DNA of 55,129 nucleotides from an uncultured Candidatus Saccharibacteria bacterium (GCA_964390875.1 CAYMIO010000001.1:49875-105003); one strand, 5' to 3'; positions 11,547 to 54,284 are shown, counted from the first letter of the stretch. Made by a program: numbers and translations. The notes: generated by a model from the letters alone, not told the origin.

Positions 11547-13700
11547 ATGAGAATAAGAATCCTTCGATTTGGTTTATGTGTGGTGGCATGCACTGCTGTT
11601 GTTTTTTCAGTCGCATACGCACAAACAGAAACCGACAAAGTACCACCAAGCATTTCGAGTGTGGCAGCTGAAAATGTTGGCCGAAACAGCGCGACTGTCA
11701 CGTGGACAACAGATGAGCCTGCTATCGGGCATGTTGAATACGGAGTGAGCAGCGACGCGCTCGATCGAGTATCAAGCGACAAACTACAAACAACTCACTC
11801 TTTGGAACTTCCCGATTTGTTTGCCGGAGCAGAGTACGTGTTTTGTGTCGGTGCTGTTGACGAAGCGGGGAACGAAGCACAAGAATGCGGCTTTTCTTTC
11901 ACTACGATTACTGTTCCTACTCCCGACCGCATTCCTCCTGTTCTCACTGGTATGAGAGTCGTATCTGTGTCTGAAACATCGGCAACGATTCAGTGGGATA
12001 CCGATACACCAAGTGATGGGCGTGTGCGATATGGTACCACTGAAGAATATACGAGTGAGACCGCATTTGAAGAAACGTTTAATACCACACATACACAGGT
12101 GCTCACCGATTTGTCTGGGGGAACACTGTATCATTTCAAAATTTCTATGGTTGATGAGTCTGGTAATACGGCAATTTCTGAAGACTATTTATTTACCACA
12201 ACCAGTCAGCGCTCGGGAGGTGGATCACATACTTCTCCTCAGTTGCCTATAGATGATGTAAAAGCAACCGATGTCACCAGCGCGCACACTACGGTCACGT
12301 GGAATACCGAAGTGCCAACTGCTTCGTACGTTGAGTACGGCGTAACCAGTTCATATGGATTGAGTGCTACTCATACTGGTGAACCCAAAACACATCATGA
12401 GCACCAACTCACGTCACTCATCGCCAACACTGAGTATCATTTTCGTGTTGTGTCTTCAGATAGTGACGGAGGAGTGTCGTATTCTACCGACCACACATTC
12501 ACGACACAAAAAGGAGCAGGCGACAGTACTCCTCCGCTTCCCGTTACAAATCTTGCTGTCACTCGGGTGACACCATACTCGGCTGTGGTGAGCTGGACTG
12601 CCCCCGCCGACGCTACGGGAGTGCTTGCCTATGATATCAACCGCTCGAAGCGTGTGATTACCGAAGAGAGTTTTGAAGATACTGAAACGATCCACGATAC
12701 AGAAATACTTCTTCGTACTCCATCTAAAGAGGGTGACAGGTACAGCTATACAGTCGAAGGACTCACGCCACGCTCTGTGTGGTACGTTGCCCTGCGCTCG
12801 ATAGATACCATGGGGAATGTGTCGCTCATATCAAATAACGCAGTACTTAATACTCTCGATGTATCGGATGTTCCTGGGATAGCACTTTCGCAGGTAGAGA
12901 ATGTAGAAGCGGTTGGTTTGGATCGTCTTGTCTCGATCGCATGGAAATATCCTTTGCAAGGAGGATCTCGTGTGCGTGTTGTGCGCGGCACGTCTTCGTA
13001 TCCAGACACTCCTACCTCAGGTACGCTGATATACGAAGGTGGCCGTACGATGGTGAGTGATGCGGGTCTAGTGAATGGAAAAACGTATTACTATTCTTTG
13101 TTCCTCTATGGTGAATCAGCTTCGTATTCAGAACCCGTCCAGTTTGCTATTGCTCCGTACGCTGAACGATTCCATTACCACGTGCTTCGAGTAAAAGAAG
13201 ATGTTCCACAAAAAAGTATTACAAAAAATCTTTCAAGAGGTGACAAAAGTACAGAAGTAGAACACCTCCAAGAAATACTCGCAACTGATCCGTCCGTGTA
13301 TCCAGAAGGATTAGTGACTGGTTTCTTTGGAGTGCTCACCGAAAAAGCAGTAGAGCGTTTGCAGCAGCGTCTTGGTCTTACCTCTACCGGCCGTGTTGAT
13401 GCTCCGACTCGAGAAGCACTTTCGCAGACCTTTTCTGAGACATCTCTTGAAGAAGAAACACAAGAAGGGTTGGTGCACGCTCTTTCATATGATCTTTCGT
13501 ACGGTATGAGTGGCCCCCATGTGCGCATGTTCCAAACATATCTTGCTCAAAAAGGATTTCTCAAACCTGCGCACGTTACCGGATTTTTTGGAAGCCTCAC
13601 TCGGGCTGCAGTTCAGTCTCTTCAGCGCATGTACGGGATCACACCGTCGTCAGGACATGTGGGTTCTATGACACGCGCGAAGATCCTCGAAAATAGATAA
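11547..13700 (+). CDS. secreted protein with five FN3-like repeats and two C-terminal peptidoglycan-binding (PG_binding_1-like) domains
   Basis: Signal peptide. Repeats share the pattern PP...SAT(V/I)xWxTD.P....V.YG....L....H...L..L...T.Y.F.....D..GN......FTT. Two C-terminal modules have the form LQxxLxxxG...VTGFFGxLTxxAVxxLQ. Confidence 0.85.
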   Translation: MRIRILRFGLCVVACTAVVFSVAYAQTETDKVPPSISSVAAENVGRNSATVTWTTDEPAIGHVEYGVSSDALDRVSSDKLQTTHSLELPDLFAGAEYVFCVGAVDEAGNEAQECGFSFTTITVPTPDRIPPVLTGMRVVSVSETSATIQWDTDTPSDGRVRYGTTEEYTSETAFEETFNTTHTQVLTDLSGGTLYHFKISMVDESGNTAISEDYLFTTTSQRSGGGSHTSPQLPIDDVKATDVTSAHTTVTWNTEVPTASYVEYGVTSSYGLSATHTGEPKTHHEHQLTSLIANTEYHFRVVSSDSDGGVSYSTDHTFTTQKGAGDSTPPLPVTNLAVTRVTPYSAVVSWTAPADATGVLAYDINRSKRVITEESFEDTETIHDTEILLRTPSKEGDRYSYTVEGLTPRSVWYVALRSIDTMGNVSLISNNAVLNTLDVSDVPGIALSQVENVEAVGLDRLVSIAWKYPLQGGSRVRVVRGTSSYPDTPTSGTLIYEGGRTMVSDAGLVNGKTYYYSLFLYGESASYSEPVQFAIAPYAERFHYHVLRVKEDVPQKSITKNLSRGDKSTEVEHLQEILATDPSVYPEGLVTGFFGVLTEKAVERLQQRLGLTSTGRVDAPTREALSQTFSETSLEEETQEGLVHALSYDLSYGMSGPHVRMFQTYLAQKGFLKPAHVTGFFGSLTRAAVQSLQRMYGITPSSGHVGSMTRAKILENR

Positions 13701-28285: not shown

Positions 28286-30418
28286 TTAATGTGTGGAGTG
28301 ACTTGGTTTTGAGCCGTAGAGCTCGCGGGCAATGATGAGAGCAGTCGCAATAAGGAGTATCAGGATAAGCCAGCCGACAATCGTGCGAGGGAGGAATCCA
28401 TCACCTCCAAAGAGGGCGAGTCCGGCAAGGTTGTTGCCTGAGCGGCACTGGTTGGGGTTTTGTACACCGTAGGCGATAGCATCATCGGTCGTGTTTTTAG
28501 TTCCATGTACAAACGATGCGGCTGCTGTAGTGACGATGCGGTTTTCAGAGAATGATCGAGCGCTGTAGTCACCGGTGATGTAGATCGTACCTGATGTGTT
28601 TTTAGCAAGCGATACGAATGTGAGGGTTACGCTTCGGTCACTTGGTGTGTATGTTCCAGCAGTGGTGCTGCGGAGTGTCACATAGTGAGGAATCGTTACG
28701 CGGATCACAACATTTTTAAGGTCTACTCCCGAGATATTTTTATATGTCACTGTGGCATCATATGCATCACGAGGACATACTGATTCGTTTCGAAGTGCTA
28801 CCTTAAGGTCAAGCCAATTACTTGAGCTTCCACCTCCTGAGTAGACAGTCTGGTTTACAATAGTGTGTGTATTTGTCGGTGTTGTTGTGTAGGTCGGTGT
28901 GTATGTTGGAACGAATGAAGGAGTGTATGTGGGAGGGTAGTAGTCGGTATTTCCACCAGTGACATACACGGTGATTGTGTCTGAATCAGAACCTTCGTCG
29001 CCATCAGCATAGAGAGTGAATGTTGTTGTTTGATAGAGTTCGTCTGATTCTGTTTCGTCGTCATCGTCGAAGTTGTTGCCTTCAACTGGGCCGTAGATAG
29101 TGATGTCATCACAGTCAGTAGTTTCCCATTCAAGATCAACGGTATCGCCATAACTGATACTTGTATCGTTTACATCGAACGAATCGATTTCACATTCGTC
29201 ATTGTTATTGTTGTTATCATTGTCAGCTTGGATGGTTTCAGATTCTGACACTGAACCACCATTTCCATATGCGGTGATAGTGTATGTTTCGTCATTCCAG
29301 ATTTCATCTGTGTCGACTTCGTCGTCTGCGTCGTATGTACCACTGATGCCGTCACCTGAAAGGTACACGTAATCACAGTTTGTTGTTTCCCATTCAAGTG
29401 TTGCTTCGTCTCCTTCATCAACTGAGTTTGGAGCATCGAAGTAGTCGATAGTACAGTCGTTTCCGCCTCCGCCGTTGTTGGTGACCGTGATAGTAACAGT
29501 AGCGCTATCAGAACCTCCATTACCACTTGCTGAAAGAGTGTAGGTTGTTGTTGTGTAAAGAGTTCCTGTTGAAACTGAACCTGTAGGAATTGTCACAGAA
29601 CCGATCGACGTGATCGATGCTGATGTACAGTTTGTCGTTGTCCAAGAAAGAGTTGCAGAATCGCCTTCGTTTATCGAAGTATCGTTTGCAGAAAACGAAG
29701 TGATATCACATCCGTTTCCACCTCCACCTCCACCGCCACCATTGGTTGTTGTGGTAAACGAAACGGTTGTTGAAGCTGCGGTTGTGCCACCAGCATTCTG
29801 TGCGTAGGCTTTGTAGTAGTAGGTTGTATTTGCCTGAAGACCTGAGATATCCTGCGTGAAATTTCCTGAGCTTCCTGACTGTGTAACTTGTGCTGTTGTT
29901 GTCGCGCCGACAAGACCAGCGTTGTTGGCATATTTAAACCATGTGGTTGTCGTAGAACCATTTCCGTTGAAGTAGCCTTTGAGAGTCGCTGATGTACTTG
30001 CGATGTTTGTCGCTGTAAGTGTCATTGCTGTTGGTGCGGTAATAGCAGGAACAGTAAATTGAATCACTGAACCGTAGCCAAAACCATCGCCGATACCAAC
30101 TGCTTGAAAGTAGTAGGTGGTACCTGGAGTTACTGAAATGTTTGCAGTATGTGAACCTGAAGCGGTTGTGTATGTCGTGGGAGTCGTTGAACTCGGCATT
30201 GTTGGATTGGTGCCGTATTTGAACCAGACCGAAATATCGTCAGCACCGTTTGCATTCCACGAAGCATTAAGTGTCGCAGATGTCTGCGTGATGCTTGAGG
30301 CTGAAAGGGTAGTGACGGTTGGGTTGGTTGCAAACGCCGTGTTTGAAACGCCGAAAATTCCCATAAGGGTAAATGTTGCGACCGCGAGAAGTTTTTTGAT
30401 TGTGTTTTTCATATACAT
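28286..30418 (-). CDS. large surface protein: signal peptide, two FN3-like modules, three Cys-bracketed tandem modules, C-terminal anchor motif
   Basis: 710 aa. FN3-like modules end in NTTYYYKAYAQN. There is a poly-Gly linker and three C.I..F...GD...L.W.TT.C modules. The C-terminus reads NLAGLALFGGDGFLPRTIVGWLILILLIATALIIARELY. Confidence 0.85.
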   Translation of the reverse strand: MYMKNTIKKLLAVATFTLMGIFGVSNTAFATNPTVTTLSASSITQTSATLNASWNANGADDISVWFKYGTNPTMPSSTTPTTYTTASGSHTANISVTPGTTYYFQAVGIGDGFGYGSVIQFTVPAITAPTAMTLTATNIASTSATLKGYFNGNGSTTTTWFKYANNAGLVGATTTAQVTQSGSSGNFTQDISGLQANTTYYYKAYAQNAGGTTAASTTVSFTTTTNGGGGGGGGNGCDITSFSANDTSINEGDSATLSWTTTNCTSASITSIGSVTIPTGSVSTGTLYTTTTYTLSASGNGGSDSATVTITVTNNGGGGNDCTIDYFDAPNSVDEGDEATLEWETTNCDYVYLSGDGISGTYDADDEVDTDEIWNDETYTITAYGNGGSVSESETIQADNDNNNNNDECEIDSFDVNDTSISYGDTVDLEWETTDCDDITIYGPVEGNNFDDDDETESDELYQTTTFTLYADGDEGSDSDTITVYVTGGNTDYYPPTYTPSFVPTYTPTYTTTPTNTHTIVNQTVYSGGGSSSNWLDLKVALRNESVCPRDAYDATVTYKNISGVDLKNVVIRVTIPHYVTLRSTTAGTYTPSDRSVTLTFVSLAKNTSGTIYITGDYSARSFSENRIVTTAAASFVHGTKNTTDDAIAYGVQNPNQCRSGNNLAGLALFGGDGFLPRTIVGWLILILLIATALIIARELYGSKPSHSTH
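28958..29710 (-). repeat. three tandem ~80-90-aa coding repeats inside the 710-aa surface protein
   Basis: Modules start at Cys237, Cys322 and Cys409 (CDITSFSANDTSINEGDSATLSWTTTNC / CTIDYFDAPNSVDEGDEATLEWETTNC / CEIDSFDVNDTSISYGDTVDLEWETTDC). Confidence 0.8.
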
Positions 30419-33076: not shown

Positions 33077-35614
33077 ATGTCATTCCTAGAAAACCTATTT
33101 GGCGATACGGGTAAAAAGGCTCTCAGTGAGGCCCGCGCCATCGTGAAAGATATCAATATATTGGAAGAAGAAGTGAAAGCGCTTGCTGACACGGATTTTC
33201 CTCTAAAGACAGCAGAACTCAAAGAACGTATTTTGAAGGGAGAAACACTCGATGCGGTTCTTCCGTATGCGTTTGCGCTTGTGCGTGAGGCGGCACGCCG
33301 AACGCTCGGACAGAGACACTACGATGTGCAGCTTATCGGAGGTATTGTTCTTCATAAAGGAAACATTGCAGAAATGCGCACTGGTGAAGGTAAGACTCTC
33401 GTCTCCACACTCCCTGCATATTTGAATGCACTTACAGGACGCGGAGTGCATGTGGTGACAGTCAACGACTACCTCGCACGCCGCGACGCCGTGTGGATGG
33501 GACAAGTGCATTCATTCCTCGGCCTTACTCTTGGTGTGTTGAATGGACAAAATACTTCATATCGATATGATCCACTTCACAAAGAAGTCGATACTGAGCG
33601 CGACCAGGTTGGTTCATACCGTATCGTGTACGAATTTTTGAAACCATGCACTCGTGCTGAAGCCTATGCTGCCGATATCACGTATGGAACAAACAGCGAA
33701 TTTGGTTTCGACTATCTTCGCGACAATTTGGCCACGTCTCTTGATCGAGTTGTTCAGCGTGGACATGCGTATGCTATCGTCGACGAAATCGACTCTATCC
33801 TCATCGATGAAGCGCGAACACCGCTCATCATTTCTTCACAGTCAGGAGATTCTGAAGATCTTTATACAAAGTTTGCAACCATTGCTCGTGGGCTTATCAA
33901 AGACGAAGACTATACGGTAGACGAAAAGCATCGTTCTATTAGTCTGACTGACTCAGGTATTACGAAAGCAGAAAGTCTTCTTGGGCTTGAGAATATTTAT
34001 ACAGAAAAGGGAATAAAGTACGTGCATCATCTTGAAACAGCGGTTCGTGCCCAAGCTATTTTTATTCGCGACAAAGATTACGTTGTGAATAATAATGAAG
34101 TGATCATCGTGGATCCTTTCACCGGCCGCATGCAGCCAGGACGTCGCTGGAGCGAAGGTTTGCACCAAGCTGTCGAAGCAAAAGAAGGCGCGAAGATTGA
34201 AAAAGAAACACGTGCTGTTGCATCTATCACATACCAGAACTTTTTCCGTTTTTATGAAAAGCTTGGCGGCATGACAGGAACGGCTGCAACGTCAAAAGAA
34301 GAATTCTATAAAGTGTACGGACTCGATGTTGTCGCTATCCCGACTCACCGTGAGATTGCGCGTATCGACCGTGCCGATTTAATCTTCCAAAGTGAAGCAG
34401 CTAAATACAAAGCTATCGCAGCAAAGACGAAAGAGCTCCAAGACAAAGGCCAGCCTGTTCTTATCGGTACCATCTCGATTGAAAAGAACGAACTTCTTTC
34501 CGCGCATCTCACTTCTGCTGGTGTTCGCCACACAGTGCTGAACGCGAAGAACCACGAGAAAGAAGGCGAGATCGTCGCCAACGCCGGAAAAAAGGGAAGT
34601 GTCACTGTTGCCACCAACATGGCCGGTCGCGGTGTCGACATTCGTCTCGGAGGAGCAAATGCTACTGCTGAAGAAGCTGAAGAAGTAAAATCTCTCGGTG
34701 GACTTTTTGTTATCGGTACTGAAAGACATGAAGCGCGTCGTATCGACAACCAACTTCGCGGACGTGCAGGTCGTCAGGGTGACCCAGGCGAAACACAGTT
34801 TTATGTTTCGATGGATGATGACCTCATGCGTATCTTCGGTTCTGACAATATAAAAAATATGATGAAGCGTCTTGGTATTCCTGAAGACCAGCCTATCGAA
34901 CACCGCATGATCTCAAAAGCACTCGAAACGGCGCAGACTCGTATCGAAGGATTCAATTTTGATGCGCGAAAATACACACTTGAATACGATGACGTCATGA
35001 ACCAGCAACGAAAAGCTATCTACGCCCGCCGCCGCGCGATGCTTGAAGCTGATCGTGAAAAAATAGAAACCTATCTCTCAGATATTCTTGAAGAACACGA
35101 AGATAAAAAAGCGGTTGTGGCTGAGAGACGCGCTGCACTCGGTGATGACTCTTTCTTTGAAGCGGTGCGACGGATCATCCTCCATGTTACCGATGCGCTT
35201 TGGGTAGAACATATTGAGACTATGGAATATTATCGTTCCTCAGTGAACCTTCGCGCCTACGGTCAGCGTGAACCTCTCGTGGAATACAAAAAAGAAGGAC
35301 TCCGTCTTTTTAAAGACATGGAACACGAAACAAAAGCACAGATCTTGAATCTCATCACAACCCTTTCTGCTGATGTGCATATTACCGCACACAAAGAAGA
35401 GTCTCATCCTGTTGAAGGTGTAACGAGCCACGAAAGTATTCCTGTATTTCGTCAGGAGTCAGAAAATGAAATGCATCCCGACAAACGTATGCATATTGAA
35501 GAAGTGAAGCGCGAAATCGCCGAAACAAAGGAATCTGAAGTGCCGAAAGTGGGCCGCAACGACCCGTGTCCATGTGGAAGTGGAAAAAAATATAAAAAAT
35601 GTCACGGAGCGTAG
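33077..35614 (+). CDS. secA: preprotein translocase ATPase SecA
   Basis: [37 protein letters not shown], and the C-terminal zinc motif [14 protein letters not shown]. An extended -10 (TGCTATAAT) sits at 33042-33050. Confidence 0.95.
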
Positions 35615-35695: not shown

Positions 35696-38600
35696 ATGAT
35701 TTTTCCTCGACAAAAAATTGCGAGTCTTTTTTCTTTACACCTCCTTTTTCTGGTGATTCTTTTCAGTGTCTTTGGTGTGTTTACTCGCGACCTTGAAGCT
35801 GCGGCTGGTGTTCCGAAAATCATCAACTTCCAAGGACGACTGCTCGACTCGAGTGGAAACCTTCTCGGTGGTTCAGGGGGAACCAACTATTGTTATCGTT
35901 TTGCACTCTTCGATGATCCTGTTGTAGGACAAGGAACAAAGCTGTGGCCCGCAGGTACACCAACCACCAACACGATATCCACTCGGCTTGGTGTCTTCGA
36001 TGCATACATTGGTGTAGCAGATGCGCTCGACTACAATTTCCAAGATAATGATTCTGTATTCGTGAATGTGGAAGTCGCTGCACAGGTAGCGAACTCTTGT
36101 GTCGGTGTGAGTTTTGAAACACTTGGCCCTCGTCCTCGTGTCGTGTCATCGGCGTATGCTATCAACTCAGGAGCAGTCGGCGGATTCATTCCTTCTCAGT
36201 CTGCAACCAACAACGACATCCCAGTGCTCACATCCGGCGCCCTTATTCTCGGGCACAGTACGCCTGGCATCAGAGCAACAGGTTCCAATGCGCTCACATT
36301 TCAAAGTGGCGTCACTGGCGACATTCAATTTTTTGGTTCATCAAATAAAATAACTTCAAGTGGTGCGCTCACTATCGCCGGTACACTCACGGCAGGTTCA
36401 GGGTCGGAAGTACTCACTCTTGCGTCAGGAAAAATCGACGCCGATGCGCTGACTCTGATAGGTAGTGGAACAACGGGTTCTTCTTCGAGTCGTTCAGGTC
36501 TTCAAACGACCAGCGATGGACTTGGTCTTTTGCAAGGGTGTACCGACGGACAACTTCTCGAATGGACAGATGCTGGCGGATGGGCATGTGCCAATGACGA
36601 CACAGGTGGTGGCGGTTCGACGCTTCAGTCCGGATACGGCGCTGATGTTGATGGCAGTGATGTGACTATTTCTCTGACTTCAGCTGACGACTCTCTCATT
36701 TTCACAAATCCTGCTTCATCAGGTACCGACAGTGGTTTTCTTGCGCAGTTCAATCAAGCAAACACTACTGCTAATGTCACCGCACTCGATGTTGTGCAGC
36801 TCAGTAGTAACGCTGATGGTATTTCTCTTTTGAATGACAATACCCTCAACACAGGAACAGCGCTGGTGGTCAACCACTACGGTGCAGGTGTTGGCAATTT
36901 GGCAATGCGTATAAACGACGTAGTGGGTGACACAACACCACTTATCGTGGACGGTGACGGAAGACTTGGTATTGGTACGACGACCATCGAAGGAACAACA
37001 GAGCGATTGCTTCAAGTGGGTTCGCCGACACAAAGAGGTAACTCTACTACGTATGGTGAAGTTACCACTAAAGGCTTGACTGATATCACTGAACTCACCA
37101 ATATCCAAGATACCTTTTTGTACGACACCACCGCCGACAGTGACGGTGGTCGCTGGATCGACTGGGCAACCACCGACCAGCTTTCGTGGTATACCGAAAG
37201 TCTTGATGACAGTCCGAGTGACCCATGCAACATTACCACCGACGATCGTTGTTATTCAGCGAGTTTTCCTCGAAAGGCGCTCCTTGTTGTCACAACGGAC
37301 GCACTCTATATATATGATGCGACCAATAACGTGATGTGGATGAAGTTTACGCAGAACGCTGATGGATACGCGCTCGGTGTAGATACCAACAACGACCCTT
37401 CAAGTGTGACTGCACAAAACGGTGTGATCTACGTGGGTGCCAAAGGTACGGCTTCGGGTGGCTTGTATGCCTTCGATTTCGTGAATGACCGCATGTGGAA
37501 TTACAATGCCACAAACCGCGCTTCAGCAAACGTGGGAATAGGCGGTAGAAACAGTGCTGTCACATATGGAAGTGATGTGAATGCAAAACTTCAGCTTGAC
37601 CCAGTAGGTACCTCAGCTGAATGGATGAACGTGAACGATGTTTCTGCTACGGTGATCAACGGAAGTTTTACGGCTATTACTATCGGTGCTACTACCAATC
37701 TTTCTCCTCAAAACGGTATTACGTTTGTTGCTCTTGCTACCGACTCAGGTCTGACCCTCATTAACATCCCTGCTCAAAGACTCGTGCAATATTCGGATGT
37801 GACAGCCGACGACTATACCGCTGTGCATATCGATAGGACGGGATATCTTTATGGACTCAACACTACACAAGATCAGCTTGAACGTTGGGATAACGTCGAT
37901 ACCGACAAAGCATCTGAAGTGAACGGCGCGTTCAACGCAAAATGGGATGAAACGCAAGCAACTGGTCCGCAAATTGCGTCAGGTGTTTTCAATATATTAC
38001 CCAATGCACCTGACGCACTTGAAGTTGTTTCAAAAGGATCCGTTGCTGATAACGGTAGGTCAAACTTGATTTACGTCGGTCACAGTCTTGGTCTTGCTGA
38101 ACTTCACGACCACACTACACAGCTTTTTGGTCTTTCAAAACTTTTCAATACAACAAAACAAACGATGCTCATGAGTGGTCTCATCGACATGGCACTTATG
38201 ATGGATGATACGTCGGGTACACTCGCGCAAGATCAAGGTGTTGCAAATACCGATATGACAATTAAAGGGTCTCCTACGCTTGCGGTGAGTGGTGTACGTG
38301 GAAAAGCAATTCAATTTGATAATACGGATGATTACTTGTGTTCTGATGCCAATCAAGATGGAACATGCGATGTTGATACCGCGTTTAACATGAGCACCGT
38401 GGGTTGGACGCTCGGTATGTGGTTTAAACACTCCACCACAACTCCTAGTGCTCCACAAATCTTGTTTGAAAAGTGTGTGACTGCAGTACCTGCGCAAGCC
38501 GTGGGTTGTGTTGCTGCATATATGACAACGACTGGAACAATTGTCACTGCGATTGATGATGATGCCACGTGGACGAGAGGATCTTCATATGATCTTACAT

Positions 38601-41164
38601 CAACATCTTCAATAACCTATAACGACGATAAGTGGCACTATCTCGTTCTTTCCCGTACGAATGCAAATGATATGGATGCGTATCTTGATGGTAGTCCGCT
38701 CAACTTAAGTAATGCCACAGGTCTCACAACGACCGTGGATGGGAGTCAGATTGTAACCATAGGAGGTGGATGTAGTACAACAACGGGCGCCAATTGTGCT
38801 GCTGCAAACATAGGAAATGTATGGGATGGTGCTATCGACGATGTGACATTCCAAGTAGGAACAACCACACAAGCAACACTCACTCCAGCCCAAGTTCGTG
38901 CGTGGTATAACGATGCTCGTCCACTGGTAAGTAAGCGTGTGATCACTGTAGATAATGCCACTGCAGGAACATCAACAACAATTGAAGATACCGGTGAGTC
39001 GTGGATCCCCAATGAGTTTGCTGGACTGCATGTGACTATTACCGGCGGCACTGGTGCAGGTCAAACACGCCGTGTTATTTCTAATACCACAAATACTCTC
39101 ACTGTTTCTCCTGCGTGGTCTACGACTCCGGACACAACAAGTGATTTTGAAGTTGATCCTGAAGCGCTTTATGGTGCAAGTAATTCTGTCTACGCTATCG
39201 GTATCACTGCCGAAGCGCCGCTTGGTGAAGCACGCCAAATGTGTGTGGGTACGAATGATGGCTCTGATGGTGGTGGTGTTACGTGCTACAACCACCAAGC
39301 GGGTCCAAGCGTGATCGCTGAGATTTATCATAGCGACACTGAACAGACCGATGACTACGGTGTTGAGTGGACTGGTGCCGACTACGATGATATTCGCTCT
39401 ATTGACCTTTCTGGTCGTGCACTCATCATTGCGAGTGAGGCACACTTTTTGACTGAAACATCCGACGTGCGACTTGGGCAAGGTTTGGATTATCTTGCAA
39501 ACCAACTTTTCAATATTAGATCTGAAATACTCACCGACGGTATTGCGGTTACAGGTTCGCTCGGTTTTGAAGTGGGCTTCGTGGGAGGTGCCGACTTGGC
39601 TGAATATTACTATTCAAATACACCGCTGGTTCCAGGAGATGTGGTGGCGATAGAACCTGTTCAGCCCGCTGGTATCACGACATCAAAAACACCATATCAA
39701 GACAACCTCCTTGGTGTTGTATCTACGCAGCCAGGACTTATTCTTGGTCCTATCGCAGAAAATGCATACGCTATTGCTCTTGCGGGACGTATTCCGGTGA
39801 AGGTCACAACAGAAAATGGTCCAATACATGTAGGAGACCAGCTGACCTCATCGAGTCGGGAAGGGTTTGCGATGAAAGCCACCAAAGCTGGTGCAGTACT
39901 TGGTCGGGTGATCAACGAACCAAGTGGAATGGTTTCGTGTAGTGAACCGCTTCCACCTATTGAAGATGCGATAGGTAATGGTCCTGGTGTTGTGGGTATC
40001 CCCGATGAGCGAGGTGTTGTTGATATTATCAATACTGCGCTCGAAGAAAGAAATGTTGGCACACTCGAAAGTTCTCATTTGAAAACGCAAGAAGAGAGCG
40101 ACGAAGGTCCGTTGTGCGGATACGCGATGTTGTTTGTCGGTCTTGGAGAAACGCTTGGTGAAAATATTAGTTTGCTTGCAGAGCGACATGCGGAGCGCAT
40201 GGAAGCACTTCCTATCGTAGAAGGACTACTCGTGAGTGGTGTTGGGGATTCTATCGATGATGAACAAGAATCGATCATGGATTTCCTTCGTTCTGTCAAA
40301 GAAACTGCAGTAGAATCTTCTCTTTCATATGAAAGTATTTTTACCGATCGTATTGCCGCTGCAGTTGATATTCTGACGCCGTCACTCTATGCAGATGAAG
40401 TGATAACCGGAAAGATCCGCGTGCCAGTAGGGAAGGAGCTTGCATTCGATGGCCTCACGGTATTTGGTGGAGGTGCTCGATTCGCTGGTACGGTTCAGTT
40501 TGGTGCGCAGACAGAATTCTTGATGCCACCACTTTTCAACAAAGACACTGCTGGCTTTGCGATCATCAAAGAAGGAGATACTCGAGTGCGTGTGAAATTT
40601 GATGTGCCGTATGCGACAACTCCTGTTGTGAGCGCTTCGATGACATTTGAAGCGATAGATAATATCGACGCTATCGATCTTGCAGGATTGTTCGAAGAAC
40701 AATATCGATTTGTTGTATACAACAAAGATGTCGATGGTTTCACTATCGAGCTCAATAAACCCGCAACGCTCAACATTCGTTTTTCATGGGTTGCGCTTGG
40801 TGTGAAAGACGCAGCCGTGTTTGAAAGTGTGTTCGATGGGCTCATTATCGGTACACCGGAAACAGAAGAAGAGACACAAGGTGACGAACCCGCTGCTCAA
40901 ACTTCAGAAGAATCCGATCCACCACTTCCCGAAGAACTTGCCGAAGAATTTTTCATTGAAGTGATCGATGTGAACGACGCTGTCCCACCTGTTTCTATCA
41001 GCACAGAAGAGGGTAGTGTGAGCGAAGAAACAGTAGAACCTGATCCAGCAGAAGAAGAACCTCAAACTGTTTCTCAAGAAGAAGCGCCTGCTGATTCTTC
41101 AGATGAAAGTGAAGCAGAGCCTGCTTCTTCTTCATCAGAGCCGGTCGTTTCTGGGGAGTTTTAA
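35696..41164 (+). CDS. giant (1822 aa) surface protein: N-terminal signal/anchor, LamG-like domain, H-type-lectin-like domain, acidic tail
   Basis: The N-terminal helix [19 protein letters not shown] is followed by [16 protein letters not shown]. LamG_3-like region at about 38255-38910 ([13 protein letters not shown]...WTLGMWFK...[10 protein letters not shown]...LDGSPLN...[10 protein letters not shown]). H_lectin-like region at about 40575-40805 ([13 protein letters not shown]...DGFTIEL...FSWVALG). Glu/Pro/Ser-rich C-terminus. Confidence 0.85.
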
Positions 41165-41242: not shown

Positions 41243-41656
41243 ATGGTGTTATCTAGAAGTTTTGTATACAAATTGCTGCTTATCTTAGTGATACTTCTCG
41301 CGGGAACGTCTGTTTTTTTCTACAATAAATTTTCTAGCCTCAAAGCAAATCCCTCAAAAGCGGAAGAAGCTGAAGTCGAACGTCTTGTGGCGGTTATTGG
41401 TGAGCATATTGTGTTGCCAAAAGATGAAACTCCCACCGTGGCTACTGTGGCAGATCCTGATGCGCTCAAAGGCCAATCTTTCTTTGTTGATGCAAAGAAA
41501 GGAGACAAAGTTTTGATTTACACCAATGCAAAGAAGGCAATCCTCTATGATCCCACGGTAGACAAAATCATCACTGTGGCTCCACTGACTATCGGTGACT
41601 CACCGACCAATGCGGTAACACGAGAAGATATAGAAAAAGGAGAAGAAGAAAACTAA
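41243..41656 (+). CDS. small N-terminally anchored protein (137 aa)
   Basis: One TM helix (LLLILVILLAGTSVFFY) plus a ~100-aa extracytoplasmic domain. Sits 15 nt upstream of the next gene. Confidence 0.6.
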   Translation: MVLSRSFVYKLLLILVILLAGTSVFFYNKFSSLKANPSKAEEAEVERLVAVIGEHIVLPKDETPTVATVADPDALKGQSFFVDAKKGDKVLIYTNAKKAILYDPTVDKIITVAPLTIGDSPTNAVTREDIEKGEEEN

Positions 41657-41671
41657 TAGCGTCTGGAAAGT

Positions 41672-42421
41672 ATGAACAATCCAGTGATTGCTTTGAAATA
41701 CATATTCGCACTCACACTGTTCTTCGTGGTTTCTGGTGCTGTCTTGGCTGCTGACCTTACGAGTGGAAGTTTTATTATTCGCGATCCGGTACTTGGTACA
41801 GGAAGTGGATATAGTTCTTCGGCTTCGTTTAGTGTACAGGGAAGCGGTAATCTCAATACCCAAGGATATGGTTCTTCAGCAAGCTTTATCGGAGAATATG
41901 GATTTTTATATTACCAGGCTCCTGTCGTGAGCCAGAGTATAACCTTCGAACTTTCTGATAGCACGCTCGCCTTCGGCTCGCTCTCATCTTCATCACCACG
42001 CTTTGCCACAGGCACGAGTGGATCGGGCACCGACAGTGTAGCGCATACTATTGTTATTGAAACGACTGCGCCCAGTGGATACTCTCTTCGATACACAGGA
42101 CTTCCGTTTTCATCGGGAGCAAGTGTTATCGATGCAGCTACTATTGTGAATGATGAGGATGGAACATCGGGTGTTGAGCAGTTTGGCATCAGTGCTTCTG
42201 TTTCCGACGATGCTGACGTTGCGGTCGGGTACGACCACAACGCTACACCCGCGAATAGAGATTGGAAATTTGTCGCTAACACTCCTGTAACGATTGTTTC
42301 AGAAGATGGTCAGACAGCGGCAGAAACGATCAATCTTTATTATCTTGCAAATATCGCAGCAAGTACTCCTGCTGGACAGTACGCTACAGAAATTACATAT
42401 ACGGTTACAGGTAATTTTTAA
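41672..42421 (+). CDS. secreted subunit with a WxL-like C-terminal module (Tyr-for-Trp variant)
   Basis: Signal peptide (VLA-AD). The C-terminal ~160 aa align by eye to the next gene: SITF..FG.LS..AHT..V.T.A..GY.L.Y.G...GT.G.EQF.IS...GYD...DW.FV...YLANIAA.T.AG.Y...ITY.VTGNF-stop. Confidence 0.7.
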   Translation: MNNPVIALKYIFALTLFFVVSGAVLAADLTSGSFIIRDPVLGTGSGYSSSASFSVQGSGNLNTQGYGSSASFIGEYGFLYYQAPVVSQSITFELSDSTLAFGSLSSSSPRFATGTSGSGTDSVAHTIVIETTAPSGYSLRYTGLPFSSGASVIDAATIVNDEDGTSGVEQFGISASVSDDADVAVGYDHNATPANRDWKFVANTPVTIVSEDGQTAAETINLYYLANIAASTPAGQYATEITYTVTGNF

Positions 42422-42536
42422 CGATATAATAGAAAGATATCCACATAAATCAGCCTCACAAGAGCGCTTCGGCCACCTTTTTGTGATAAGATGTACTTTA
42501 TAAGACTATTATTTATTTATATATTGTTTCCAAATT

Positions 42537-43604
42537 ATGTTTAAAAAAATCGTGAGTGGTGCGCTTGTAATACTGTTTGTGTGTGTGGTTAGTGGTATCC
42601 CGCAGGTTCTTTTCGCTGCTTCACTCACAGCACTTTCAGATACGATGTCCGACCAAAATGCGAGCGCTGCATCAAGTCACACTATCCGATTTACTACACC
42701 AACTGGAGCATCAGACAACACTGACACTATCATCATCACATTTCCTTCGGACTTTAACTTCACATCAAAGACTATTGGCTCAGTGTCTTTCACTCACGGA
42801 TCAACCACTGGTGCTGAAACAACAGAGACACTCGCATCGAGTGCCACTGGTAGTGCATGGGGTGCTGCGTTCTCAGGTACACAAAACCGTGTACTCACGC
42901 TCACTGCTCCAACCGATGGTGTCGGTGCAGCATCACTTGCAGCAAGCGACAAGGTTATCATCACGTACGATTCAACCAACTCCCTAAACCCAAGCTCAAC
43001 AGGTAGCTTCACCATAGCTATTACTGGTTCGTTTGGAGATACTGGTAACATTGCGATTCCTATCGTAGCTGGTGGTGCTGGTGACGACAGTGTGGCTATT
43101 ACTGCTAACGTAGATCCTTCCATCACATTTACAAACGATGACGCTGCTATTGGTTTTGGAACACTGTCAGCTTCAGCCGCAACCTACGCTAATGCAGGAG
43201 CGACTGGCTCAAGTTCAGATACTACAGCACACACGATGACTGTAGGTACGAACGCAGCTGGTGGATACACCATTACATACTCGGGAGCAACACTTACATC
43301 GGGTGGAAATACTATCACTGCTATTAACGCTGGTATAACTGATGACGCAAACGGTACTCCAGGTAGTGAACAGTTTGCTATCAGTGGTGCTCTTACCGGA
43401 ACAGGTTCTATGGCTTCAGGATACGACAACTCAGGTACTGCTGACTGGCGTTTTGTTCCAAGTACAACAACAACACTTGCTTCACATACTGGTGTTGTTT
43501 CTTCAGACAGCATTGCTATGCACTATCTTGCGAATATCGCAGCAAACACTGAAGCTGGTTCGTACTCAAATACCATTACCTATATCGCAACCGGTAACTT
43601 CTAG
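42537..43604 (+). CDS. secreted subunit, paralog of the previous gene (same C-terminal module plus an extra N-terminal beta-rich domain)
   Basis: Signal peptide (LFA-AS). Ends ...HYLANIAANTEAGSYSNTITYIATGNF. Thr/Ser/Gly/Ala-rich. Confidence 0.7.
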   Translation: MFKKIVSGALVILFVCVVSGIPQVLFAASLTALSDTMSDQNASAASSHTIRFTTPTGASDNTDTIIITFPSDFNFTSKTIGSVSFTHGSTTGAETTETLASSATGSAWGAAFSGTQNRVLTLTAPTDGVGAASLAASDKVIITYDSTNSLNPSSTGSFTIAITGSFGDTGNIAIPIVAGGAGDDSVAITANVDPSITFTNDDAAIGFGTLSASAATYANAGATGSSSDTTAHTMTVGTNAAGGYTITYSGATLTSGGNTITAINAGITDDANGTPGSEQFAISGALTGTGSMASGYDNSGTADWRFVPSTTTTLASHTGVVSSDSIAMHYLANIAANTEAGSYSNTITYIATGNF

Positions 43605-43615
43605 CGAGACCCACA

Positions 43616-44635
43616 ATGCAAAAAGGATTGCTTTATTACATACAGCGCGCTGTCCTACTCTCACTCTTTTTTCTCGCTCTTCCGTTTGGAGCACACGCGC
43701 TGACGCTCACACCTGTACGCCATGAACTTCGCGGAGATCCCGGTGAGACTATTCGTGAGACGGTAACTCTCATCAACGAGAAGTCTACAGGCGAAACATT
43801 CTATACATCATTTGCAAATTTTGAAGCAGAAGGTGAGAGTGGTAGTCCTAGTTTTGTTGAACCAATAGAAGGTGTGGGAACATGGATCGTCACCAACTCT
43901 TCGGTTTATGTAGCTCCTAATAGTTCAAAAGAAGTTGAATTGTCTATTACGATTCCAAAGAGCGCAAATCCTGGAGGATATTTCGGCGCTGTCTTTTTTG
44001 GAACATCTCCTTCTTCTTCAGCTGGTGAAGTCGCTATCGGTTCCAAGATTGGTGTACTCGTACTTCTCACTGTTAATGGTGAAGTAAGTAAAGATGGAGG
44101 TGTCCTTGAATTTGCGACGAAAGATATGCAGAAATGGTACACAGCGCTCCCTGTCCCACTGTACTATCGTTTTCAAAATGCCGGAGGCGACCGTATAAAA
44201 CCAGAAGGTGAAATTCTTGTACGCAACCTTATCGGTTTAATCGCTGCTCGCATTCCTGCCAACCAAGTCCAGGGAAACATTCTCCCAAGTTCAACTCGAA
44301 GGTTTGAAGTGCTCTGGCAATCAAAACATGGAAGCTCTGAACCTCACGAAGGAGGATTGGGCTTTTTCCAAGCAGTGTCATACCAGTGGAACAATTTTGC
44401 GTTTGGAAGGTATGTGGCGCACCTTGATCTGACTCATTCAGGAAATGAGTTACACCACAAAGCAAAGTATTCGTTCTGGGTATTTCCATGGCAGCTCTTG
44501 ATCGTTGTTGGTGTGGGCCTACTCGTTTTCGTGACTCTTCTTAGAAAAGGTCTTGCGCGCTACAACGCGTGGATTATTAAGAAAGCACGAATCTCACTTG
44601 ATACCACTCATCAAAACAACAGCAAAGAAAAGTAA
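43616..44635 (+). CDS. CscA-like protein (DUF916/DUF3324-like, i.e. WxL-interacting-protein architecture) with a C-terminal TM anchor
   Basis: Signal peptide (AHA-LT). LTLTPVRHEL..GETIRETVTLINEKS, VAPNSSKEVELSITIPKSANPGGYFGAVFF, GVLVLLTVNGEV, ILPSSTRRFEV. The C-terminal helix LLIVVGVGLLVFVTLL is followed by a basic tail. Sits 11 nt after the previous gene. Confidence 0.65.
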   Translation: MQKGLLYYIQRAVLLSLFFLALPFGAHALTLTPVRHELRGDPGETIRETVTLINEKSTGETFYTSFANFEAEGESGSPSFVEPIEGVGTWIVTNSSVYVAPNSSKEVELSITIPKSANPGGYFGAVFFGTSPSSSAGEVAIGSKIGVLVLLTVNGEVSKDGGVLEFATKDMQKWYTALPVPLYYRFQNAGGDRIKPEGEILVRNLIGLIAARIPANQVQGNILPSSTRRFEVLWQSKHGSSEPHEGGLGFFQAVSYQWNNFAFGRYVAHLDLTHSGNELHHKAKYSFWVFPWQLLIVVGVGLLVFVTLLRKGLARYNAWIIKKARISLDTTHQNNSKEK

Positions 44636-51320: not shown

Positions 51321-54284
51321 ATGAAGAATGTATTTTTTAGAAAAGTGATGAGTCTTTTCACTGTCTTTGCACTTGTGGCAATGTATGGTGGATACGGAAC
51401 AACACAGGTGTTCGCTAACGAAGACGTACCTGTCGTTGAAACAACAACAGAGGAAACTCCTGTTGAAGTTGTTGAAGAAAACCAAGAAGAACAGGTAGAA
51501 GAAGTTGTTGAGGAGGAAACTGTTCCAGAAACAGAAGAAACAACAACAGAAGAACAGGGTGGAGAAGTTCTTGGTGAAGAAACAAAAGAGCTTCCGGTTG
51601 TTGAAGAACAGCGTGTACAAACAGTGGTAGAAGAAGGTGCATGTTCTGTTATTACAACAACTATTGTTTCTGACACTTCAAACATTGTCCAAGAAACAGG
51701 AAACCCTGCGGTAAAGGCATGGGAGCACCCAAACTGGGCAGATATCTCAGGTGCTGACTGGATCTGGGAATCATACCAGGTTGCAAATCCTCTCGTATTC
51801 CGCACTGTCGATTTCACTAAAGAGTTCACTATTGATGGCACTGTTACAGAAGCAACTCTTGAAATCGCAGCTGACAACTACTTTACGTTTGACCTCAACG
51901 GAAACGAGGTTCTTTCACGCACAGAAAGTGACGATACTTCAGGGTCTGTAGGATACAACTTCCAGAGTACCTACTCTGCTGATGCGATGGGTATGATCAC
52001 TTCTGGTGAAAATACCATCGATCTTGAAGTCACCAACCGTGCGTCTTCAATGAACAGCGTAACTCTCAACCCCGCTGGTGTTGTGTATAAGCTCACTGTT
52101 GTTTCAGAAGACTGTGGCGATGAAGAAGAAACAGCAACCGTACACGCAACAAAAATCGTGTGTGACAGTGAAGCTGACCTTCCCAACTGGGGTGCAGGAA
52201 ATGTTGTAGGCAGTATCAACTCTGCGACAGCATCACTCTTCCTTGATGAACACGAAGAATCATGTCACGAAGAAGATTGGACATTTGAATGGTCTCTTGA
52301 TGGTGTAGGAAACCCTGGAGACAATGGTCAGATGGGTGGTGAAGGATGGAATGCCTTTACTGATACAACTGATATTCCAACTGGCCGAATCTGGTTCCGT
52401 GAACAGATGCAAGATGGATACATTTTCTTTACAGGAGCAAATACAACAGAAACTGTTTCAGCTGAAATCTACTGTGGAAGTGATGTGCTCAATTACGACA
52501 ACTGGGAATATATTGATGCGGTAGATGGTGGTGAATACTACTGTGTGGCATTCAATGCTCCAGTCGAAGTTCCATACGTCTGTGATCCAGAAATCAATTT
52601 GATTGAAAATGGTAGTTTTGAAAACCCTGACATTTCAACTGGTACATACGAGATCGTAAAAGACTTGAACGAAGATGTTACGTCAGTGCTCGCATGGCTC
52701 GTCGCATGGACAACACCAGAAGACGGTGGACGCCTCGGTCTTGAAGTCCAAGATCATGTTGCTGGAAACCCAGCAGTCGGTGCCGGCGACCAATTCGCAG
52801 AACTTGATGGTGATCACCCAACCGCTATTTCACAAGACGTTGAAACAGTGGCTGGTGAACCATACACACTCACATTCATGTACTCTCCTCGTCAGGGACG
52901 AAATGCCGCAGACAACATGATTGAAGTTCAAAAAGACGGTGCTGTTCTTGGAGATGTACTCGCTGCTGATGGTACAGCAAACAGTGACACTGCATGGGCA
53001 ACTTACACTCGCACCTTTATCGCAGATGACTCTTCAACAACAATCTCGTTTGTTGATACAGGTACTGACACAAGCTTTGGTGGTTACCTCGACGAAGTAC
53101 GTCTCTCATGTGGTACACCGGTTGTAGACGATGAAGAAAGTACAATCACTGTTACTAAAATCGTTGTAGGGAATGATGCGTTTGATTCATCAGACTTTCC
53201 TCTCTATGTGAACGAAACATCGGTGGTTTCTGGTATTGCGTCAGAATTTGAACCAGGAACATACACAGTCTACGAATCAAGCAACGCTGATTTCATTCCG
53301 ACATTCTCAGGTGCTTGTGTTGCCGATGAAAGTAACGAATCTCGCATTGCATTGATCGAAGACTTCCAAGCAAAAAAGACTGCTCTTGAAAATGCTATCG
53401 CTGCATCTCCTGAAGATGTAGAAGGAAATCAAATCAAAACAGATATGATTTTCGACATCAATGAAAAGATCGTAGCACTTCAGAATTCTCTCAGTGCAAC
53501 CATTGACCTTTCAGAAGGTGAAGATGCAGAATGTGTTATCACAAATACATACACACCAGTTGTCGTAGATGACTTCCCTCAGTGTTCTGATGGTGAAGAC
53601 AACGATGAAGACGGTCTTTCAGACGAACTTGATCCAGGATGTCACACTGATGGTGATCCAACTGACGAAGATGAAGTAGACAGCTACGATCCAGAGGATG
53701 ATGACGAAACAAATACGACAGAAGAAGTAGTCTACGCATGTTCTGACGATGCCGACAACGACGAAGATGGCCTTACTGATGCCAATGACCCAGGCTGTCA
53801 CTCAGACGGTGATGCAACCGATGAAGATGACACCTACGTTCCAACAGACAACGACGAAACTAATGACACTTCATCTAATACAAACGGTGGAGGTGGTTCA
53901 TCAGGCAGTCGCGGTGGTGGTGGAAGTGTTCTTGGAGAAGTACTCGGTGCCTCAACTTCATGCGGCATCTACCTCAATGAATACATCATCAAAGGTTCAA
54001 CAAAGAACAATCCAGCAGAAATCATGAAGCTCCAGACATTCTTGAACAACTACATGAATACTGGTCTTACGGTCAGTGGCGTGTACGATGCAGCTACTAT
54101 TGCTGCCCTCAACGCCTTCCAGCTCAAAGAATGGCTTCTCGTGCTTCGCCCATGGGGTATTACAGCACCGACAGGAAATACATATCTCACGACACAACTC
54201 CGAATCAACAACATCATGTGTCCAGAATTGAACCTTTCTGTCTTTCCTCCGCTCCATACGATCCCTGCAGCGATGAAGCTCTAA
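51321..54284 (+). CDS. large surface protein: signal peptide, Glu-rich spacer, DUF642-like carbohydrate-binding-type domain, two TSP3-like Ca-binding repeats, Gly-rich linker, PG_binding_1-like C-terminus
   Basis: 987 aa. IENGSFENP...GDQFAELDG...GGYLDEVRLSC. Then CSDGEDNDEDGLSDELDPGCHTDGDPTDEDE and CSDDADNDEDGLTDANDPGCHSDGDATDEDD. The C-terminus carries IMKLQTFLNNYMNTGLTVSGVYDAATIAALNAFQ. Confidence 0.85.
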   Translation: MKNVFFRKVMSLFTVFALVAMYGGYGTTQVFANEDVPVVETTTEETPVEVVEENQEEQVEEVVEEETVPETEETTTEEQGGEVLGEETKELPVVEEQRVQTVVEEGACSVITTTIVSDTSNIVQETGNPAVKAWEHPNWADISGADWIWESYQVANPLVFRTVDFTKEFTIDGTVTEATLEIAADNYFTFDLNGNEVLSRTESDDTSGSVGYNFQSTYSADAMGMITSGENTIDLEVTNRASSMNSVTLNPAGVVYKLTVVSEDCGDEEETATVHATKIVCDSEADLPNWGAGNVVGSINSATASLFLDEHEESCHEEDWTFEWSLDGVGNPGDNGQMGGEGWNAFTDTTDIPTGRIWFREQMQDGYIFFTGANTTETVSAEIYCGSDVLNYDNWEYIDAVDGGEYYCVAFNAPVEVPYVCDPEINLIENGSFENPDISTGTYEIVKDLNEDVTSVLAWLVAWTTPEDGGRLGLEVQDHVAGNPAVGAGDQFAELDGDHPTAISQDVETVAGEPYTLTFMYSPRQGRNAADNMIEVQKDGAVLGDVLAADGTANSDTAWATYTRTFIADDSSTTISFVDTGTDTSFGGYLDEVRLSCGTPVVDDEESTITVTKIVVGNDAFDSSDFPLYVNETSVVSGIASEFEPGTYTVYESSNADFIPTFSGACVADESNESRIALIEDFQAKKTALENAIAASPEDVEGNQIKTDMIFDINEKIVALQNSLSATIDLSEGEDAECVITNTYTPVVVDDFPQCSDGEDNDEDGLSDELDPGCHTDGDPTDEDEVDSYDPEDDDETNTTEEVVYACSDDADNDEDGLTDANDPGCHSDGDATDEDDTYVPTDNDETNDTSSNTNGGGGSSGSRGGGGSVLGEVLGASTSCGIYLNEYIIKGSTKNNPAEIMKLQTFLNNYMNTGLTVSGVYDAATIAALNAFQLKEWLLVLRPWGITAPTGNTYLTTQLRINNIMCPELNLSVFPPLHTIPAAMKL

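Follow-up and report, generated by a model that had tools for sequence, protein, structure and literature searches.

A probable Pam-type pilus cassette in an uncultured Candidatus Saccharibacteria genome, with a chaperone-like protein remotely homologous to WxL-interacting proteins

Introduction

Pam pili were described in 2026 in one cultivated Saccharimonadia parasite, Ca. Mycosynbacter amalyticus, as thin filaments seen by cryo-electron microscopy (bioRxiv 10.64898/2026.03.03.709456). In their subunits PamA and PamB, an N-terminal sandwich of nine strands is joined through one linker strand to a truncated immunoglobulin (Ig)-like C-terminal domain, which receives the linker strand of a neighbour (10.64898/2026.03.03.709456). 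PamT is a tip subunit made of the module only, PamC and PamD are PapD-like chaperones with a C-terminal transmembrane (TM) helix, and PamR, which has two fibronectin type III domains and a TM helix, donates an N-terminal strand and anchors the fibre (10.64898/2026.03.03.709456). In the WxL/Csc clusters of Bacillota, a strand of the WxL-interacting protein (WxLIP) completes the sandwich of its client (PMC10599100). Structures of the Enterococcus faecium WxLIP (9i1y and 9i25) were released in January 2026, with chain 9i25_C annotated as 'bound to long WxL' (PDB). Here we analyze a locus in a 55,129-nucleotide stretch of DNA, hereafter the window, from an uncultured Candidatus Saccharibacteria bacterium (GCA_964390875.1 CAYMIO010000001.1:49875-105003). 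The locus is probably a Pam-type pilus cassette of the Candidate Phyla Radiation (CPR)/Patescibacteria, encoding a chaperone-assisted, usher-free filament built by donor-strand exchange. The basis of this reading is the family membership of a shared module, the fold and WxLIP homology of a chaperone-like partner, the gene order, and the class-specific distribution of a strand motif. The filament structure and donor-strand exchange are taken by analogy from the literature on its relatives.

Results

The shared C-terminal module matches the Pam pilin family

Three open reading frames (ORFs) lie head to tail in the locus and encode proteins of 249, 355, and 339 amino acids (aa) (Table 1). A BLASTP comparison of the first two aligned residues 86-249 of the 249-aa protein with residues 192-355 of the 355-aa protein (72/167 identities, 43%; E 2e-38), a similarity far beyond chance. 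An earlier reading made from the sequence alone had pointed out this module, and the start and end strings it quoted are found verbatim. A profile of the two copies, searched against 1.84 billion representative proteins clustered at 50% identity, retrieved 603 representative clusters at E<=1e-3 and 328 at E<=1e-10. The host proteins are 122 to 3431 aa long. The end of the module is the last residue of the protein in 147 of the 149 best representatives, and lies at most 2 aa from the end in 152/152 ORFs of related loci. The landmarks named in the sequence-only reading (FG, G-Y-x-aliphatic, and AG.Y...TY) are real, being conserved in at least 130 of the 142 aligned modules (F in 141, G in 138, and the two Tyr in 130 and 132). 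The final residue is also aromatic, with Phe in 127/142 and Tyr in 14/142.

A Pfam scan of the 249-aa and 355-aa proteins found no family. Both proteins pass the NCBIfam model NF058581 (CPR_Pam_pilin_C, 'Pam pilus system pilin subunit') with 62.2 and 61.0 bits, respectively, against a curated cut-off of 55 bits. The definition of this family followed the 2026 Pam preprint. The same model was matched by 87/87 diverse relatives (E<=0.01), one of which also gave a weak match to the BcfF fimbrial subunit model. Judging from these profiles, the module proteins are Pam pilus subunits of ultrasmall CPR bacteria and not demonstrable WxL proteins. The sequence-only reading had itself named a pilin with a PapD-like chaperone as the finding that would redefine the system as pilus-like; with both proteins passing NF058581, this is essentially what we find.

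In the AlphaFold2 (AF2) model of the 355-aa protein (pLDDT 85.9), beta strands at residues 31-177 and 196-353 are separated by an unstructured, low-confidence segment at about residues 181-195. More than 1081 homologous clusters were found for this protein. Among the PDB matches of its model in Foldseek, CfaB pilins are within the 50 best, and the WxL chain of 9i25 is outside them. Plain sequence searches of the PDB with the 249-aa, 355-aa, and 339-aa proteins, and with a profile of the 339-aa family, gave nothing relevant. The region of the 249-aa protein that precedes the module (residues 27-85, window positions 41750-41926) contains three S(G/A)SF repeats (SGSFIIRD, SASFSVQG, and SASFIGEYGF). 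The last of them is kept in similar small proteins (P0432 and P0421: ...S.SF.GEYGF.YY). This repeat region may serve as a self-capping strand or in a tip function.

Remote WxLIP homology of the 339-aa partner

The AF2 model of the 339-aa protein (pLDDT 90.2) has a signal helix, strands at residues 34-289 arranged in two beta-sandwich domains, and a C-terminal helix at residues 292-338. Its best PDB matches in Foldseek are the E. faecium WxLIP chains 9i1y_A, 9i1y_B, and 9i25_C (E 3.6e-10 to 2.7e-9), followed by the class-5 fimbrial chaperone CfaA, RbmA, CsuC, CupB2, DraB, and Caf1M. We compared the family with a WxLIP profile of 13 annotated DUF916+DUF3324 proteins from Enterococcus, Melissococcus, Listeria, Lactococcus, Lactiplantibacillus, and Bacillus plasmids. 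The hhalign alignment of the two had a probability of 96.3% and an E of 1.5e-9, and its 192 columns take in both domains (29-239 against 32-265), whereas reversed decoys reached 11-19%, on the TM helix only. The layout of the protein (signal peptide, two Ig-like domains, C-terminal TM helix) is that of WxLIP, and its 339 aa fall within the WxLIP size range of 337-365 aa (PMC10599100). By profile and fold, the 339-aa protein is a remote WxLIP (DUF916/DUF3324) homologue, which upholds the assignment made in the sequence-only reading. The Pfam signals are faint. The protein matched WxLIP_PGBD with 16.3 bits (cut-off 27.3) at profile positions 85-119 only, and sub-threshold matches to this model occur in 45/59 family members (best E 2.9e-5). 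WxLIP_HBD gave no match, and the generic fn3_5 model was matched by 46/59 of the family. PapD_N and PapD_C had no Pfam matches in any cassette protein.

The conserved WxLIP motif NQIDKxxxYFDLK is absent from the CPR family, where hhalign places it opposite an 11-residue gap. The best-conserved internal segment of the family has the consensus GQVAIGAKTGxLVLLRVNG, with G142, G146, L148, L150, V153, and G155 invariant or nearly so. Because this segment aligns with a WxLIP hairpin, it is likely the complementing strand. The distant kinship of the partner with WxLIP hints that the Pam-type and the Firmicute WxL surface systems may be related. In the literature searched, no paper tied the chaperones of Pam pili to WxLIP or related WxL to strand complementation and to pili, and the chaperone homology is therefore a new link. 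The Pam preprint does not mention WxL or DUF916 (10.64898/2026.03.03.709456), and the literature search turned up no paper about 9i25 or about a connection between WxL and pili.

A strand motif is distributed by subunit class

We searched for the strand motif [VIL]x[VIL]xAx[VIL] (consensus DDQVxVTATV) immediately before the module. In the pilin alignment, A190 and V192 are invariant and T191 is nearly invariant, and the linker strand is unstructured in the monomer model (pLDDT ~61). Among the representatives, the motif precedes the module in 45/66 mid-size proteins versus 2/53 large ones. Among the ORFs of related loci, the counts are 73/108 mid-size versus 1/40 large, and the sole large ORF with the motif is an over-extended pilin ORF call. 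The V.VTATV motif is not present in the 249-aa protein of the window. In the family of the fourth cassette protein (the 340-aa ORF), the motif stands at the mature N-terminus in 58/66 homologues (ITVEITATVPGCGD). The module would thus be an acceptor without donor at the tip, an acceptor with donor in the shaft, and absent from a donor-only subunit at the base, so that the strand distribution fits donor-strand assembly.

Dockerin and cohesin-like proteins follow the chaperone gene

The 340-aa protein has the mature N-terminus SVSIQAIVSG after its signal peptide, followed by a poly-Gly linker, Ig-like (Big) domains, and a C-terminal dockerin. It matches Pfam Dockerin_1 with 29.7 bits (cut-off 22.9) as well as Big_6. 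Of its homologues, that of L004 likewise scores above the Dockerin_1 cut-off and that of L016 slightly under it, and the poly-Gly linker occurs in 51/66. The next two proteins, of 316 and 366 aa, are paralogues (hhalign 100%, E 3.8e-39), and both end in a hydrophobic, TM-like stretch. Their cohesin-like domains are N-terminal. Two homologues of the 366-aa type exceed the Pfam Cohesin cut-off of 24.1 with 25.5 and 26.1 bits, and one of the 316-aa type is slightly under it (21.2 bits). From its domain layout we propose that the 340-aa protein is a strand-only terminator and anchor adaptor. Instead of having a TM helix of its own, as PamR does, the base subunit seems to be retained through the pairing of dockerin and cohesin.

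The cassette is conserved across CPR genomes

In a scan of one genome per species, 160 genomes had a relative, and 80 were kept for counts of loci. All of these are CPR bins, except for a few evidently mislabelled bins with the same cassette. Their labels include Parcubacteria/Paceibacterota, Nomurabacteria, Peribacteria, Magasanikbacteria, Uhrbacteria, Harrisonbacteria, and 'Saccharibacteria'. The order of the genes is a variable module gene, the pilin (80/80), the chaperone (77/80, directly after the pilin), the dockerin protein (65/80), and the two cohesin-like proteins (56/80 and 52/80). The product of the variable upstream module gene ranges from ~300 to >2500 aa, with a median of 956 aa among the large ones. 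The locus is of the Pam pilus kind and represents a distinct cassette variant.

Nine bins with Polynucleobacter, Gammaproteobacteria, or Pseudomonadales titles (L013, L025, L042, L044, L046, L052, L076, L078, and L080) contain a complete cassette at 41-60% identity. They are almost certainly mis-binned or mislabelled CPR contigs. One related locus (L008:8993-10927) has two tandem chaperone genes, like the PamC/PamD pair of M. amalyticus.

The module resembles the WxL domain without demonstrable homology

The sequence-only reading had taken the module for a WxL domain with both Trp replaced by Tyr, and its two assignments fared differently: WxLIP for the partner held, and WxL for the module did not. 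Pfam WxL (PF13731), a domain carried by all 120 true WxL homologues, had no match to the 249-aa and 355-aa proteins at E<=1, did not occur among the families that 59 close relatives matched (E<=1), and was outside the 25 families most matched by 87 diverse relatives (E<=10). For hhalign we used a WxL alignment of 123 sequences, all with PF13731, and a 'compact WxL' set of 13 sequences that included the C-termini of large proteins. The module against WxL gave a probability of 1.2% (P 0.045) with a narrow CPR profile and 4.0% (P 0.01) with a diverse CPR profile of 142 sequences. Against the compact WxL profile it gave 1.7% (P 0.03). Reversed decoys of the module-WxL comparison had P values of 0.09-0.24, and the positive control, small against compact WxL, reached 98.6% (E 7e-16). 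The scoring core of the module-WxL alignment is 13-17 columns of the C-terminal strand. In the reciprocal direction, WxL proteins did not match NF058581 at E<=10. None of the five approaches (Pfam WxL, reciprocal NCBIfam, and hhalign with the narrow profile, the diverse profile, and the compact Bacillus-type bridge) gave a significant result.

Two observations stand on the other side. The extended hhalign alignment is collinear, pairing FG with FG, TNA..GY with DNRGTEaGW, TLT with eLtG, and the C-terminal strands with each other. Since the WxL landmarks are collinear there, the resemblance is real but homology is unproven. In addition, the CPR module hidden Markov model (HMM) ranks WxL-cluster proteins on top of a set of 138 Firmicute ORFs and 138 decoys (E 2e-3 versus 0.27 for the best decoy). 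Membership of the module in the WxL family is not demonstrated, and a distant homology is an interesting possibility.

The residues at the two WxL motif positions do not point to a different wall ligand, as had been suggested for the Tyr variant. Tyr is found there in 130/142 and 132/142 modules and Trp in only 2 and 4, with an aliphatic residue at +2 (I/L/V at the first position, A/V at the second). The aromatic-x-aliphatic pattern is kept, and not WxL, while the small WxL proteins have 100% Trp and Leu at these positions. The diverse WxL set has Tyr at the two positions in 1/13 and 3/13 sequences, respectively. The Trp side chains of WxL are buried and structural, not ligand contacts (PMC9772566). 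Tyr occurs naturally in annotated Bacillus WxL proteins of a B. thuringiensis plasmid (L092:4140-4760, GEGYRVNV ... LTYSVVTGP) and a B. mycoides plasmid (L091:4175-4783, GDGWRINV ... LTYSIVTGP), both of which end in VTGP, reminiscent of the CPR TGNF. The Trp-to-Tyr argument loses its force because Tyr is the CPR norm, the WxL Trp is buried, and Bacillus WxL proteins carry Tyr.

In the WxL clusters, small LPXTG proteins have an N-terminus in common with the small WxL proteins (L085:3647-3997, L086:3633-3992; L001:5047-5784), made up of a signal peptide, a strand of the G-x-V-x-F type, and a linker rich in Pro. The WxL HMM matches these LPXTG proteins at positions 8-74, and the N-termini of the small WxL proteins match NCBIfam EF0750_LPXTG (E 1.5e-7). 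By its composition, the common N-terminus looks like a donor-strand-like extension.

Organization of the locus and its neighbourhood

The features of the cassette are listed in Table 1. The likely start codons of the later genes fall inside the preceding genes, and that of the second cohesin-like gene overlaps the previous stop codon by 4 nucleotides. These overlaps suggest that the cassette genes are translationally coupled. Promoter and terminator scans of the locus gave nothing exceeding shuffled sequence. All cassette products carry Sec-type signal peptides.

Table 1. Positions of the cassette features in the window
Feature	Position	Strand	Description
Small module-bearing subunit, 249 aa	41672..42421	+	Signal peptide, ~60-aa N-terminal region, C-terminal Pam pilin module
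Module of the 249-aa protein	41927-42418 (residues 86-249)	+	
Two-domain shaft pilin, 355 aa	42537..43604	+	Signal peptide, N-terminal beta-sandwich (~residues 28-177), linker, C-terminal module
Putative donor strand in the pilin linker	43083..43112 (residues 183-192)	+	DDSVAITANV; family consensus V.VTATV
Module of the 355-aa protein	43113-43601 (residues 193-355)	+	
Membrane-anchored chaperone-like protein, 339 aa	43616..44635	+	Signal peptide, two Ig-like domains, C-terminal TM helix, basic tail
Conserved loop-strand of the 339-aa protein	~residues 137-153		EVAIGSKIGVLVLL
Dockerin protein, ~325 aa	44598..45575	+	"340-aa" ORF from 44553; likely start TTG 44598
Cohesin-like protein 1, ~301 aa	45559..46464	+	"316-aa" type; likely start ATG 45559; C-terminal TM helix
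Cohesin-like protein 2, ~335 aa	46461..47468	+	"366-aa" type; likely start ATG 46461; C-terminal TM helix

The wider window is ordinary CPR housekeeping (SecA, ABC transporters, M1 peptidase), with no ATP synthase near the cassette. SecA is encoded at 33077-35614, directly upstream of a giant secreted surface protein of 1822 aa (35696-41164), which in turn directly precedes the cassette and has weak Laminin_G and H-type lectin matches. As a module carrier this giant was rejected, for its sequence contains no module and it is found near the cassette in only 10/80 loci; in those loci its homologues adjoin the cassette upstream or downstream. It may correspond to the 'tail fibre-like protein' that is a conserved neighbour in the Pam preprint (10.64898/2026.03.03.709456). 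Position 41243, where the sequence-only reading had placed the start of its region, belongs to an unrelated 137-aa TM protein, which was ruled out as part of the cassette since it is kept in only 2/80 related loci. Surface proteins are abundant in the window. A 717-aa wall-associated protein (11547-13700) combines two PG_binding_1 domains with four Fn3-type repeats and a domain of the purple-acid-phosphatase N-terminal type. Further large proteins that look secreted are encoded at 28286-30418 (minus strand) and 51321-54284 (plus strand), with DUF642 and, below threshold, DUF11 domains.

Discussion

We propose the following assembly. The products would be exported by Sec, and the module, as an Ig-like sandwich that is incomplete, would serve as acceptor domain of the pilin. 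A C-terminal helix would tether the 339-aa protein to the membrane, where it would act as the chaperone whose loop-strand transiently completes the module. Polymerization of the 355-aa pilin would follow when its linker strand (V.VTATV) takes the place of the chaperone strand in the preceding subunit's module. Having the module and no donor strand, the 249-aa protein could occupy only the distal end, which makes it a candidate tip or cap subunit like PamT; in other genomes its slot is filled by giant adhesin-like proteins. With the strand at the mature N-terminus and no module, the 340-aa protein would cap the proximal end. Through its dockerin, the fibre would be held on the products of the next two genes, which are cohesin-like and TM-anchored. 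We infer the roles of tip, terminator, and dockerin-cohesin anchor.

Several points weigh against this proposal. The strict motif is lacking in 21/66 mid-size module proteins among the representatives and in 35/108 among the locus ORFs. The similarity between the N-terminus of the 340-aa protein and the pilin linker is too short for significance (hhalign P 0.076). By a simple hydrophobicity criterion, no more than 26/57 and 14/53 homologues of the two cohesin-like proteins have a TM window at the C-terminus; some of these ORFs run off their contigs. The PamT model NF058579 aligns with the 249-aa protein over the full length but scores 48.1 bits against an equivalog cut-off of 240, and the NCBIfam models of Pam chaperones and PamR did not match the 339-aa or 340-aa proteins. 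The link to the solved M. amalyticus pili comes from the NCBIfam models and the description in the preprint, and the PDB copies searched were without entries 25PZ and 25QA. Strand insertion, the order of the subunits, and the dockerin-cohesin pairing are likewise steps that we infer.

One alternative holds that the locus is a Tyr-variant WxL system outside the Firmicutes, in which a module bound non-covalently to the wall is stabilized by WxLIP in a static complex and not a fibre. The partner is a genuine remote WxLIP homologue, and the architecture is that of WxL clusters, with small and large proteins carrying a C-terminal module and a TM-anchored partner. The collinear landmarks and the HMM ranking of WxL-cluster proteins also speak for it. 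We nevertheless consider it unlikely, because Pfam WxL has no match to the module, the hhalign scores are not significant, WxL proteins do not match the Pam model, and the 9i25 chain is missing from the 50 best matches of the pilin. The distribution of the donor strand favours polymerization, and the argument from Tyr is weakened by the buried WxL Trp and by Tyr in Bacillus WxL proteins. The cassette also contains no LPXTG protein.

A generic operon of Ig-fold adhesins is another explanation, in which the module would be a C-terminal sorting or anchoring tag, comparable to CPR-specific sorting signals or PEP-CTERM and recognized by a processing factor, and the 339-aa protein an unrelated, Fn3-like membrane protein. 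Like sorting tags, the module lies without exception at the very C-terminus, and its last residue is a conserved aromatic. It is attached to very diverse giant N-terminal regions, and the 339-aa family matches fn3_5 as often as WxLIP_PGBD (46 versus 45 of 59). However, a confidently folded beta domain of ~160 aa is far bigger than any sorting tag and is recognized by the curated Pam pilin model, and the module is intact in the filament maps of PamA and PamB. The WxLIP similarity spans both domains of the partner at 96%, chaperone-usher chaperones are among its fold matches, and the strand-motif pattern is left without explanation by a tag. We regard this explanation as very improbable, and the Pam-type pilus remains our preferred reading.

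A broader proposal is that Pam pili and WxL/Csc clusters are two branches of one ancient, usher-free, chaperone-assisted donor-strand system of single-membrane bacteria, with the WxL domain as a diverged acceptor and WxLIP as a membrane-tethered chaperone. We put it forward tentatively, as somewhat less probable than its contrary. The chaperone homology and the parallel architecture are established and the homology of the modules is neither proved nor excluded. WxL proteins may then form short donor-strand-linked chains that are anchored by sortase, rather than merely sticking to peptidoglycan. If the modules are homologous, the WxL complexes of Firmicutes would be relatives of pili.

The cassette variant described here is widespread, with at least 160 species-level CPR genomes and the 603 module clusters, and is marked by a single chaperone, by giant tip proteins that are hypervariable, and by what appears to be a dockerin-cohesin base. 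Such cassettes are candidate organelles of host recognition and attachment for many uncultivated ultrasmall bacteria. The link between the chaperone and WxLIP joins a CPR fibre to a poorly understood virulence and colonization system of Enterococcus, Listeria, and Lactobacillus, and chaperone-type strand complementation and exchange become a testable hypothesis for how WxL complexes are built.

Comparison with known systems

The closest system is the Pam pilus. The locus shares with it a C-terminal module that passes the domain model, a two-domain pilin with a linker strand, a small module-bearing subunit, a two-Ig chaperone with a C-terminal TM helix, a terminal subunit that would donate an N-terminal strand, the lack of an usher, and a distribution limited to CPR. 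It differs in having a single chaperone gene where M. amalyticus has PamC and PamD, and a single shaft pilin in place of PamA/B/E. A dockerin closes the strand-only subunit, whereas PamR ends in a TM helix, and two cohesin-like TM proteins follow; the PamT equivalog score is also not reached. The relatives are labelled Parcubacteria/Paceibacterota, Nomurabacteria, Peribacteria, Magasanikbacteria, and Uhrbacteria, whereas the preprint stresses Saccharimonadia and Microgenomatia and mentions no cohesin, dockerin, or Paceibacteria (10.64898/2026.03.03.709456).

With the WxL/Csc clusters (PF13731, PF06030, PF11797; 9i1y and 9i25), the locus has in common a WxLIP homologue of the same size with two Ig-like domains, a TM helix, and a basic tail. 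The module of the clients is strictly C-terminal, in small as well as in large proteins, and its landmarks are collinear. In contrast to those clusters, the module is not detectably WxL, Tyr and not Trp is the norm, the WxLIP motif is missing, there is no LPXTG protein or sortase context, and the hosts are CPR and not Bacillota. WxL clusters have also been described as peptidoglycan-bound complexes, not as fibres.

Chaperone-usher systems (class 5 CFA/I with CfaA/CfaB, archaic Csu, Caf1M, PapD) are similar at the level of fold, both in the chaperone, which resembles CfaA, CsuC, CupB2, DraB, and Caf1M, and in the pilin, which resembles CfaB. The presence or absence of donor strand and acceptor domain also gives the same logic of tip, shaft, and terminator. 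The differences are the lack of an outer membrane and of an usher (no cassette protein has usher-like Pfam or NCBIfam matches) and the tethering of the chaperone to the membrane. The putative donor strand is the internal linker of two domains, not an N-terminal extension. Compared with cellulosome-type assemblies, the setting is a pilus cassette of an ultrasmall bacterium without glycoside hydrolases and with TM-anchored cohesin-like proteins, but as in those assemblies a Dockerin_1 domain above threshold adjoins cohesin-like domains that, in homologues, are above threshold as well.

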